Shown: positions 20,731 to 57,252 of the stretch, piece by piece | Position numbering within the stretch: position 1 is the first letter of the stretch | How the letters are laid out: each line of letters starts with the position of its first letter | Sequence record: OQ992558.1 | Direction: 5' to 3' (one strand) | From: Escherichia phage L14 | Length of the DNA: 64,000 bases | Made by a program: the position numbers and the translations under genes | The notes under the pieces: generated by a model | Databases searched by the model: none | What the model was told of the DNA's origin: nothing | Seen by the model: the letters and a program-made list of their open reading frames with translations, nothing else

Positions 20731-20738
20731 TATAAATA
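20731..20738 (+). promoter_or_regulatory. T4 late promoter box TATAAATA for gene 34
   Basis: Exact TATAAATA 35 nt upstream of the gene 34 ATG. Confidence 0.7.
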
Positions 20739-30287: not shown

Positions 30288-30319
30288 TTTTTGAATAAAT
30301 ACCCTTAAAAGGAGGGTCT

Positions 30320-30976
30320 ATGGCAGCACCTAGAATATCATTTTCGCCCTCTGATATTCTATTTGGTGTTCTAGATCGCTTGTTCAAAGATAACGCTACC
30401 GGGAAAGTTCTTGCTTCCCGGGTAGCTGTCGTAATTCTTTTGTTTATGATGGCGATTGTTTGGTATAGGGGAGATAGTTTCTTTGAGTACTATAAGCAAT
30501 CAAAGTATGAAACATACAGTGAAATTATTGAAAAGGAAAGAAATGCACGCTTTGAATCTGTCGCCCTGGAACAACTCCAGATAGTTCACATATCATCTGA
30601 GGCAGACTTTAGTGCGGTGTATTCTTTCCGCCCTAAAAACTTAAACTATTTTGTTGATATTATAGCATATGAAGGAAAATTACCTTCAACAATAAGTGAA
30701 AAATCACTTGGAGGATATCCTGTTGATAAAACTATGGATGAATATACAGTTCATTTAAATGGACGTCATTATTATTCCGACTCAAAATTTGCTTTTTTAC
30801 CAACTAAAAAGCCTACTCCCGAAATAAACTACATGTACAGTTGTCCATATTTTAATTTGGATAATATCTATGCTGGAACGATAACCATGTACTGGTATAG
30901 AAATGATCATATAAGTAATGACCGCCTTGAATCAATATGTGCTCAGGCGGCCAGAATATTAGGAAGGGCTAAATAA
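30320..30976 (+). CDS. t: holin (218 aa)
   Basis: Near-identical to recalled T4 holin T (MAAPRISFSPSDILFGVLDRLFKDNATGKV...). Confidence 0.95.
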   Translation: MAAPRISFSPSDILFGVLDRLFKDNATGKVLASRVAVVILLFMMAIVWYRGDSFFEYYKQSKYETYSEIIEKERNARFESVALEQLQIVHISSEADFSAVYSFRPKNLNYFVDIIAYEGKLPSTISEKSLGGYPVDKTMDEYTVHLNGRHYYSDSKFAFLPTKKPTPEINYMYSCPYFNLDNIYAGTITMYWYRNDHISNDRLESICAQAARILGRAK

Positions 30977-54790: not shown

Positions 54791-55027
54791 TTAACCACCT
54801 ATTTCTGTAGGCGTAAACATTGCAGCATTCTTAGTTTTCCAAGTTGTTGCATCGGAAACTACATCAGAATAAGCTGCTTTTTCTGACGGAAAGATTTGAT
54901 AATGAGAATCTGCAATACGGTGTTCATTTGAATATACATCAAATGCTACAGAAACTTCCATACCTTTAACTTCTTTGCCTTCACCTGCTGGATGAGTAAA
55001 GGTCTTGATGTTAACGAAACCACCCAT
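54791..55027 (-). CDS. soc: small outer capsid protein Soc (78 aa)
   Basis: VNIKTF...YQ-FPSEKAAYS motif matches recalled T4 Soc. Confidence 0.75.
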   Translation of the reverse strand: MGGFVNIKTFTHPAGEGKEVKGMEVSVAFDVYSNEHRIADSHYQIFPSEKAAYSDVVSDATTWKTKNAAMFTPTEIGG

Positions 55028-55058
55028 AATAAACTCCTTTATTGTTTAATTACAGGTG

Positions 55059-55066
55059 TATTTATA
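55059..55066 (-). promoter_or_regulatory. T4 late promoter box TATAAATA for soc
   Basis: plus tatttata = minus TATAAATA, ~31 nt upstream of soc ATG. Confidence 0.6.
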
Positions 55067-55240
55067 TCAGTCTTCAATGAAAACTTGTGCCAGGAATTCG
55101 TGTTCATCTTGAATTTGTTTATATAAAGCCATTACAGCATTTATATTAGATCTATCTACTTTAAGTTGATAGGCATACCACTCGTATAAATTAATTAAAG
55201 CTTTTTGTCGTCTAATAAATTCTTCTTTGGATATTTTCAT
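55067..55240 (-). CDS. hypothetical protein (57 aa)
   Basis: Hand-translated; ATGA overlap with upstream ORF; below ORF-track cut-off. Confidence 0.4.
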   Translation of the reverse strand: MKISKEEFIRRQKALINLYEWYAYQLKVDRSNINAVMALYKQIQDEHEFLAQVFIED

Positions 55241-55437
55241 TTTGAATGCTCTATAATTAATTTTAAGGCTTCTTTACTGACAAAAATTTCATCAAGACCT
55301 TCTTCTACACCCCAATCAACTACACGAAGCTGATTAGATAAGAGCTCGTATGTGAGCTCCTTGTCATAATTTTTAAATAGCTGGTCAATACGTTTCTTGT
55401 GGGCTTTCTTAAGCTGGCGTTTATTTAAACGAGCCAT
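55237..55437 (-). CDS. hypothetical protein (66 aa)
   Basis: ORF between 56 and soc. Confidence 0.45.
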   Translation of the reverse strand: MARLNKRQLKKAHKKRIDQLFKNYDKELTYELLSNQLRVVDWGVEEGLDEIFVSKEALKLIIEHSK

Positions 55438-55955
55438 TAATAACCTCGGTCTTGACGAGCGAAGTTTTCAGCATTTTTCAGATAATAAAGTTTAAAGATT
55501 TCTTCAGCCGTAAGACCGAGGCCTTGGAACATGTTCAGAACGAAATGAAGAATATCAATCATTTCGAATTTAATTTCCAACTGGTCTTGTGGAGACAAAT
55601 CAGTAATCAGAGTTTCACGTCGTTCACCATGTTGAGCTTTCCAAGGCTTCCATACAGCAGATGCATCTTTTTCACCATTGCTCATACCACCAAGAGAAGT
55701 CAATAGTTCGCGGAATTCATCATCAATATAATCTTTCTGATTACGCAGCCAATCAACAACTTCACCCGCAGTAGCCAAATCATCAGGATGACGGTTATAT
55801 TCAGGTTTATCTTTAGCTAAACGAACCTGCAGAGATTTCTGCATATCAAGCATAACTTGCAACGGGTCTTTTTCATCACCGAGAATATCCCAGTATTCAT
55901 TTTGAGCTTTATCAGCGCCTTCAATCAGTTGTGAACATTCATTAAAGTATGCCAT
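55437..55955 (-). CDS. 56: dCTP pyrophosphatase, MazG-like (172 aa; start at MAYFNE)
   Basis: Start matches recalled T4 gp56 N-terminus; ORF-track N-terminal extension is hydrophobic and likely spurious. Confidence 0.8.
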   Translation of the reverse strand: MAYFNECSQLIEGADKAQNEYWDILGDEKDPLQVMLDMQKSLQVRLAKDKPEYNRHPDDLATAGEVVDWLRNQKDYIDDEFRELLTSLGGMSNGEKDASAVWKPWKAQHGERRETLITDLSPQDQLEIKFEMIDILHFVLNMFQGLGLTAEEIFKLYYLKNAENFARQDRGY

Positions 55956-56026
55956 TATTTTTCCTTTCAATTCATGGGTTAGTAGATTAATTATACAATA
56001 AATATATAAAGCAATAAGGAGGACAT

Positions 56027-56227
56027 ATGGTACAAAAATTAATGGCACTTGTTAATGCCATCAAAGGTAATAAAAAGCGTATAGCTTTTACTATTTCTGC
56101 TATGGTAGGAATTTTACTCTGGAACTTTATTTTATCACCAATTGCAATTGCGCATGGTGTTAATATTCCAGTAGTTACTCTTGATACATTCGTAGATCTA
56201 GCATTTGCTTTAGTTGGGTTAATTTAA
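56027..56227 (+). CDS. small membrane protein (66 aa) on plus strand
   Basis: Strong RBS AAGGAGG 7 nt upstream of ATG; two hydrophobic segments; divergent from gene 56. Confidence 0.45.
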   Translation: MVQKLMALVNAIKGNKKRIAFTISAMVGILLWNFILSPIAIAHGVNIPVVTLDTFVDLAFALVGLI

Positions 56228-57252
56228 ATCTTGGCATATTTAGATAACCGCATTTTAGCCATTAACCCCTGGGCAATATTATTTTTCATATATTCCATAA
56301 TTTGTTCAGGGGTTGCACCTTCCTTTCTAATCATATCATTAACATCTTTTGATTTCCAGGGAGATTTATCCCAAAACATAACCCTTTCTCCTGCATCAAC
56401 TAATTTAGTCATTCGCTTGATAGTGTCAGGGTGACGAGGTTCATTATCTAAAACCCACACTCGTCTATCTTTAAATGGAACAACTTCTAGGTCTAATTGA
56501 CCACCCGTAATAGCTATACCATTTTCAATAAAAAGTGAATCTATAGGTCCTTCTAGAACATATACATCACCATCTTTAACTCGTTCGACTCCATATATTT
56601 TTGTTGCCTCAGGATAAGCTTTGATGGTGATATATTTTTGAGGAGCATCTTTCTTTAATGCACGTCCTTGAAAAGACTCAGCTTTTCCGTTAGCATTATA
56701 AATTGGAATAACAAGACGAGGCTCAGGTGTTTCCTTTTTATATGTTCCTGGAGCTATACTATTAACTAATTTAGGCCATTCAGTTGTAAACCAAAGATAT
56801 TTCCATTTATCCTTTGGAATACAACGAGCTTTTACATATTTTATAATTGGATGGTCTTCCGCCAGTTTATCTAATCGAACACATGACGGAAGAGATTTAA
56901 TTATTTTCTTCTCAGGTTGTTTAGGAAGTTCTTTAGGTTTTTCTACTGGACGACTTTTACCTTTTTCTTTTCTTATTTCAAAGATATACTCACGATATAA
57001 ATCAGGTTCAAACTCCTTTAAATATATTCCGATTGGCGCATGATAGTTACAGTTATAACAATGAATATTTCCTTCATTATTATCACCATAATACCATCCA
57101 CGAGCTTTATTCTGGTCGGTTTTTGAATCTCCACAAACAGGGCATCTAAACCGCAATTTAAAAGTTGAACTATTATTTACTTGTGTGAATTTAGGTAAAT
57201 GAGCTAATGCACGATACGCAAACTCATTATCAATCCAAGGTATTGATGACAT
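56224..57252 (-). CDS. 61: gp61 DNA primase (342 aa)
   Basis: Zinc-ribbon CPVCGDS...CYNC and TOPRIM region; matches recalled T4 gp61. Confidence 0.9.
   Translation of the reverse strand: MSSIPWIDNEFAYRALAHLPKFTQVNNSSTFKLRFRCPVCGDSKTDQNKARGWYYGDNNEGNIHCYNCNYHAPIGIYLKEFEPDLYREYIFEIRKEKGKSRPVEKPKELPKQPEKKIIKSLPSCVRLDKLAEDHPIIKYVKARCIPKDKWKYLWFTTEWPKLVNSIAPGTYKKETPEPRLVIPIYNANGKAESFQGRALKKDAPQKYITIKAYPEATKIYGVERVKDGDVYVLEGPIDSLFIENGIAITGGQLDLEVVPFKDRRVWVLDNEPRHPDTIKRMTKLVDAGERVMFWDKSPWKSKDVNDMIRKEGATPEQIMEYMKNNIAQGLMAKMRLSKYAKI

Follow-up and report, generated by a model that had tools for sequence, protein, structure and literature searches.

Positions 56027-56227 of the window (the whole 64,000-nucleotide stretch of Escherichia phage L14 DNA analysed here) contain a plus-strand open reading frame of 66 codons that starts with ATG, stops with TAA and translates to MVQKLMALVNAIKGNKKRIAFTISAMVGILLWNFILSPIAIAHGVNIPVVTLDTFVDLAFALVGLI. 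The ORF lies between gene 56 and the primase gene 61, both of which are on the minus strand. The features of the locus that enter into our analysis are listed below, most of them with the evidence from which they were called.

56027..56227 (stop included), plus strand: coding sequence of 66 aa, dam.1 / RB32ORF030w / phrog_2024 family (ORF listing and homologues)
56016..56022, plus strand: Shine-Dalgarno sequence AAGGAGG, with the ATG 4 nt downstream (read from the sequence)
55997..56004, plus strand: late-promoter-like box AATAAATA, with the ATAAATA core of the T4 late promoter TATAAATA at 55998-56004 (sequence)
56081..56152, plus strand: predicted transmembrane helix, codons ~19-42 (hydropathy and charge; AF2 helix 16-42)
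55437..55955, minus strand: gene 56 (dCTPase), divergent from the ORF, start ATG at 55955
55990..56012, minus strand: MotA-type middle promoter for gene 56, GCTT N13 TATAAT (sequence; the homologous site is annotated in SA20RB)
56029..56064, minus strand: predicted intrinsic terminator downstream of gene 61, inside codons 1-13 of the ORF (scan and fold)
56224..57252, minus strand: gene 61 (DNA primase), convergent with the ORF, 4-nt overlap at 56224-56227

The start codons of gene 56 and of the ORF are 71 nt apart. At the other end, the TAA of gene 61 and the TAA of the ORF share the palindrome TTAA, so that the two genes overlap by 4 nt. A preliminary description of the locus had reported a 66-aa plus-strand ORF with a near-consensus ribosome-binding site (AAGGAGG), divergent from gene 56 and ending 4 nt inside the 3' end of gene 61; the sequence and the ORF list bear this out and the coordinates agree. 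The length of the ORF is by itself no proof of a gene, because spurious ORFs of 30-84 aa are common in this AT-rich window. No second copy (paralogue) was found elsewhere within the window. T4 carries dam between genes 56 and 61; dam is absent from this interval in the window, and no Dam match was found anywhere in the 64 kb. The place of T4 segF (region 55027-55437) is occupied by two small ORFs, at 55067-55240 and 55237-55437.

The ORF belongs to a catalogued family of hypothetical proteins

The preliminary description had not recognised the ORF as a T4 gene. T4 itself, however, has a copy with 97% amino acid identity (AF158101, 17738-17938), which lies inside a 310-bp "gap" between dam and 61 and is merely unannotated in that record. 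The record of the resequenced T4T, HM137666, names the ORF dam.1 (ADJ39749.1), the name used for RB32, RB51 and RB14 is RB32ORF030w, and that used for RB69 is RB69ORF029w. A search of PHROGs matched residues 2-66 to positions 1-65 of the 65-position profile of phrog_2024 (E=1.5e-31), a family to which PHROGs assigns no function. Similarly, the named members that were read from the three 90%-identity clusters of the family are all labelled "hypothetical protein". Most of the related records in which the gene occurs already annotate it, as a hypothetical protein, and PHROGs has it as a family, so that the gene is not itself a discovery. Intact copies of the ORF are left unannotated in AF158101, EF469154 (JS98; L027 1474-1674), LC348380 (T2), NC_014260 (IME08) and MT782071 (JN02). 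Literature searches on dam.1 and RB32ORF030w found no mention of either name, and searches on T4 Ribo-seq and proteogenomics returned nothing relevant.

Conservation argues for a protein-coding gene under purifying selection

A tblastn search identified the same ORF in about 690 phage records (692) from Tequatrovirus, Mosigvirus and Gaprivervirus, with amino acid identities of at least 90% in Tequatrovirus and of 44-56% in Mosigvirus and Gaprivervirus. More diverged copies occupy the same position in Salmonella phage S16 (gp16.1; Gelderlandvirus), Citrobacter phage Moon (Moonvirus), Klebsiella phages Mineola (Jiaodavirus) and KLB31 (Kanagawavirus), and JS98 (Dhakavirus). Over at least eight genera of Tevenvirinae the frame is open and can be aligned at 25-55% amino acid identity. 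Codon alignments of eight copies yielded dN/dS values of 0.10-0.14 within Tequatrovirus, 0.10-0.43 between genera and 0.10-0.68 over all pairs. Between genera, synonymous sites were at or near saturation (pS 0.56-0.78), compared with a pN of ~0.32-0.39, and the least variable codon position in these alignments was the second. Since spurious ORFs reach a similar length, it is conservation that settles gene status, and these comparisons indicate that the ORF is almost certainly a genuine protein-coding gene under purifying selection. Lack of conservation in relatives, which the preliminary description had named as one outcome that would speak against the ORF, is not what we found: both the ORF and its frame are kept in related genomes.

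The position of the gene is conserved as well. Members of the family lie on the strand opposite the early genes, on the 56/dam side of primase gene 61. The ORF and the primase gene converge in T4, ST0, DK-13, a metagenomic T4-like contig, KLB31, S16, Moon, Mineola and JS98, and the 4-nt overlap with gene 61 is kept in 8 of the 10 lineages examined. A homing-endonuclease gene located between the ORF and the primase gene breaks the overlap in DK-13 (Gaprivervirus; L005 2872-3621), and extra sequence separates the ORF stop from a primase-like 3' end in TH40 (L004). In Mineola, the ORF is intact and an 18-nt gap lies between it and the primase gene.

We also searched for more distant relatives. 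A profile built from 18 members was run against 1.84 billion representative proteins (E <= 0.001); its nine matches were members, fragments of members and relatives of 60-68 aa, and this search provided no tie to any characterised family. A word-indexed protein search returned close relatives and nothing else. The distant relatives have the motif WN[FY]..P.A..[HY]G..LPP in common, and one of them is carried by the metagenomic T4-like contig, in which it is convergent with the primase gene and overlaps it. There was no annotated counterpart beside the primase gene of Aeromonas phages avDM1 and 65, AB-Navy1 (Acinetobacter), PSTCR6 (Providencia) or PhiK2046 (Klebsiella), and an HMM search of the six-frame translations found none either. 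Since no copy was detected beside the primase gene in these phages, the ORF would seem to be accessory, and confined to enterobacterial members of the Tevenvirinae. One public protein, P0074 (61 aa, MVFVNVIKGNKKCIVFIIFVMVG…), looks as if it had been translated from C-to-T converted reads, its changes relative to the family being A>V, T>I, S>F/L, P>L and H>Y. This pattern suggests that P0074 is a bisulfite or deamination artefact of a public assembly.

Signals on the opposite strand and the relation to oriA

The terminator predicted downstream of gene 61 has its hairpin at 56039-56064, in codons 5-13 of the ORF, with an 11-bp stem, a 4-nt loop and a TTTTTGT tail (-16.3 kcal/mol, z=-3.05 vs shuffles), and the same minus-strand terminator is annotated in related records, including SA20RB. 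One DNA segment would thus encode protein on the plus strand and form the predicted end of the gene 61 transcript on the minus strand. The hairpin is specific to Tequatrovirus; the copies from Mosigvirus and Gaprivervirus show no evident counterpart. On the other side of the start codon, the middle promoter of gene 56 and the late-promoter-like box of the ORF overlap back to back because there is no dam in the interval.

The preliminary description had tied the ORF to a replication origin in the 56-61 interval. In T4, oriA is annotated where gene 56 begins, and the transcript of this gene is said to serve as the primer (PMC3016281). The association with the ORF looks incidental, since in T4 dam stands between the ORF and gene 56/oriA. 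Judged from the genomes compared here, the constant partner of the ORF is the 3' end of the primase gene, not the origin.

A candidate late promoter precedes the ORF

The box AATAAATA upstream of the ORF matches the T4 late consensus TATAAATA at 7 of 8 positions, the first T being the one that is missing, and the ATG follows 22 nt on. Nolan et al. (PMC1524935) report poor conservation of the T at -13 among the late promoters of T4-like phages. The core ATAAATA occurs 12 times in the window, counting both strands, compared with 36 +/- 6 times in shuffled sequences, a threefold depletion. Other copies directly precede soc, the tail-fibre gene 36 and the holin gene t, and the copy at gene 32 lies 84 nt upstream of it. 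A copy at 20732(+) probably precedes 34, and further copies are located at 2238(-), 8429(+), 13269(-), 26303(+), 33059(-) and 44716(+). The region before gene t (30294-30322 of the window, plus strand) has the same build as that before the ORF, with AATAAATA and not TATAAATA, followed by AAGGAGG, 4 nt and ATG.

An exact ATAAATA was present 15-22 nt upstream of the ATG in 9 of 11 lineages with otherwise diverged flanks (this window, T4, Mosigvirus ST0, Gaprivervirus DK-13 and L012, JS98, the metagenomic contig L016, KLB31 and Mineola), and T4 keeps it although the upstream neighbour there is dam, not 56. S16 and Moon have ATTAAATA in its place. Given how often the heptamer occurs in the window, ATAAATA would fall within such a band of 20 nt by chance with a probability of ~0.002 for each lineage. 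A GGAGG or GGAG precedes the ORF in all 11 lineages examined. The conservation of ATAAATA upstream of the ORF and its depletion in the window, together with the variability of the T at -13 (PMC1524935), point to gp55-dependent late transcription, and the ORF is probably expressed late. A candidate transcription start lies near 56010, which would give a leader of 17 nt. The plus-strand position of the ORF is what would be expected of a late gene and fits with the ATAAATA upstream. The box lies inside the spacer of the divergent middle promoter, and its conservation could therefore partly serve that promoter.

A terminator scan and folding (z=-1.3) found no plus-strand intrinsic terminator after the ORF, so that a late RNA would probably continue antisense to gene 61. 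The plus-strand terminator annotated after the ORF in the SA20RB record was reproduced by neither the scan nor the fold.

The product is predicted to be a small inner-membrane protein

In every member of the family, the most hydrophobic stretch of 19 residues reaches a Kyte-Doolittle value of 1.8-2.7, as would be expected of a signal anchor. The N-terminal 18-23 residues contain 5-6 K/R and the C-terminal flank contains 0-2, and from this excess the N-terminus is predicted to be cytoplasmic. The AF2 model (pLDDT 78.6) has helices at residues 2-12, 16-42 and 52-63. The C-terminal stretch (~52-66) is hydrophobic in Tequatrovirus, with two Asp, and weakly hydrophobic in distant members. Its shortness, its two Asp and its weak hydrophobicity in distant relatives lead us to read this stretch as a helix on the periplasmic side and not as a second span. 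Of the two hydrophobic segments noted in the preliminary description, residues ~19-42 can accordingly be kept as a full span, whereas ~52-66 is too short for one; the pair probably represents a single transmembrane helix followed by a short helix at the C-terminus. Hydropathy and charge, on which the topology call is entirely based, make an inner-membrane protein with its N-terminus inside very probable. The initial view of the locus as a small plus-strand membrane-protein gene amid minus-strand early genes thus gains support from the conserved ORF and the predicted helix.

The alignment revealed a common layout, in which a K/R cluster and a hydrophobic run are followed by W-N/D-aromatic-x3-P-x5-G-x3-P. 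W32, P38 and G44 are invariant, N33 is replaced by D in one member, and the aromatic residue at position 34 (F/Y) is L in JS98; P48 and an acidic residue at position 53 are also conserved. Searches of Pfam, NCBIfam, PDB and BFVD, with Foldseek for BFVD and PDB, detected no relative outside the family. NCBIfam matches to P13 porin and AaeX (E~0.01-0.03) fell far below the cut-off and were dismissed as hydrophobic noise. A lipoprotein or spanin was likewise rejected: there is no lipobox, and Cys is confined to the Gaprivervirus copies and the metagenomic relative P0076. The tryptic pattern includes a single peptide of usable size, LMALVNAIK, which may help to explain the lack of proteomic reports in our literature searches. 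With no K/R beyond residue 18, standard shotgun proteomics would miss the protein.

Alternative readings of the locus

Were the ORF a product of chance, its DNA would be kept for the terminator of gene 61, the promoters of 56 and dam, and the neighbourhood of oriA. The minus-strand terminator hairpin within the early codons would then account for part of the conserved sequence, and the middle promoter that overlaps the upstream region and the T4 oriA annotated nearby could be invoked in the same way. However, the hairpin is Tequatrovirus-specific, yet the frame is open across genera with a dN/dS well below 1, and the ORF adjoins the primase gene with or without an adjacent gene 56. The dN/dS values and the cross-genus alignment effectively refute this explanation, to which we attach almost no probability. 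A role for the RNA as the main product would instead have the late promoter drive antisense transcription into the primase and early genes and shut them, the ORF being secondary or incidental. Such a role would be in keeping with the missing plus-strand terminator after the ORF and with the fact that 8 of 10 lineages preserve the 4-nt overlap between the ORF and the converging gene 61. It is harder to reconcile with conservation of the amino acid sequence in spite of saturated synonymous sites, with the retention of a strong Shine-Dalgarno sequence in all lineages, and with an ORF that stays intact in DK-13, TH40 and Mineola, where it is parted from the primase gene; we consider it improbable that RNA is the main product. 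Antisense-RNA and protein roles are compatible with each other and not exclusive.

For the protein, two other fates can be considered. Signal peptidase I could cleave a Sec signal before [HY]G (between IAIA and HG), turning the product into a secreted micro-peptide: an acidic, hydrophobic peptide of ~24 aa, HGVNIPVVTLDTFVDLAFALVGLI, would be released to the periplasm or to the outer leaflet. Positive charge in the N-region, small residues at -3/-1 before [HY]G in most lineages (AIA, ALA, VAA, AAS) and Pro38 at -6 of the putative cut site would fit with this fate. By contrast, the hydrophobic core of ~22-24 residues resembles a signal anchor, where 7-15 would be expected of a cleaved h-region, the site reads LVA in Mosigvirus and ALT in P0075, and W32, N33, F/Y34 and P38 would, unusually, all lie inside the segment to be discarded. 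We give cleavage little credence. The other fate is that of a holin, the label that UniProt and BFVD attach to the orthologue from phage OE5505 (A0A482MZV5, in a separate cluster) and for which a search of the literature on OE5505 found no support. The product is small, membrane-embedded and probably late, like a holin, and the promoter and Shine-Dalgarno sequence are built as in gene t of the window. Yet it has a single full transmembrane helix, and a charged hydrophilic tail is missing from its C-terminus, which is instead hydrophobic and has a net charge of -2 to +1; the last 24-29 residues include 0-2 K/R and finish with a hydrophobic helix. There is also no match to a Pfam or NCBIfam holin family, and these phages already encode holin T. 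A holin function appears very improbable.

A proposed model: a probable late membrane micro-protein

The reading that we prefer is that of a late gene which encodes a small protein of the inner membrane. In this model, gp55-RNA polymerase would start late in infection from the AATAAATA box, ~17 nt before the ATG, and produce an mRNA with a short leader and a strong Shine-Dalgarno sequence. The transcript would probably extend past the ORF as antisense RNA to gene 61. The 66-aa product is predicted to enter the inner membrane in such a way that the K/R-rich N-terminus stays cytoplasmic and a tail of ~24 residues is periplasmic, the short helix of this tail (52-63) lying on the outer leaflet or dipping into it. 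The conserved residues W32, N/D33, F/Y34, P38, G44 and P48 fall in or just after the transmembrane helix, which suggests action through helix contact. The most likely action would be helix-helix contact in the membrane, not enzyme activity, and the contact may be self-association or binding of a phage or host membrane protein. Taken together, this sequence of expression, antisense run-on, membrane insertion and action by helix contact seems likely. As to its role, we would guess that the protein tunes a late envelope event, which might be lysis timing or inhibition, membrane integrity or envelope protection, or membrane-bound assembly. That it is a partner-binding modulator of a late envelope process can be put forward only tentatively. 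A more specific version, and a rather unlikely one, places dam.1 in a late membrane process in which its Asn-containing helix would bind holin T or another membrane protein and so tune the timing or inhibition of lysis, or has it counter a membrane-based defence of the host.

T4 has one of the best-studied genomes, and its reference record AF158101 is without this gene despite selection across at least eight genera of Tevenvirinae. Because the annotation omits the ORF, omics data mapped to such an annotation would not count it. The omission from the T4 reference annotation and the one usable peptide given by trypsin are possible reasons why dam.1 may have been overlooked for decades. Listing the gene in T4 and finding its role could give function to a widespread phage micro-protein.

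Comparison with known systems

T4T dam.1, RB32ORF030w, RB69ORF029w and S16 gp16.1 are the same gene as the ORF described here, with the same position and orientation relative to gene 61. The arrangement in the window differs from that in T4 in that the ORF is directly beside gene 56, whereas T4 has dam in between. Like T4 holin T, which is a late inner-membrane protein with its N-terminus inside, the ORF product is predicted to have all three of these properties. However, holin T has 218 aa and a large periplasmic domain, compared with 66 aa and a single helix for the ORF product. The small holins of classes I and II cross the membrane with 2-3 helices and end in a charged tail, whereas the C-terminus of the single-helix ORF product is hydrophobic and either uncharged or acidic, and no sequence or Pfam relation connects it to holins. 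Small single-pass regulators, among them AcrZ, MgtS, HK97 gp15 and the T4 proteins Imm and Ac, bind a larger membrane protein and have no catalytic activity; T4 Imm is made early and has two helices. Sequence similarity to regulators of the AcrZ/MgtS type was not detected, all similarity being within the ORF's own family. The likeness to AcrZ, MgtS, HK97 gp15, Imm and Ac would be one of size and build: 50-80 aa, with a single or double helix.
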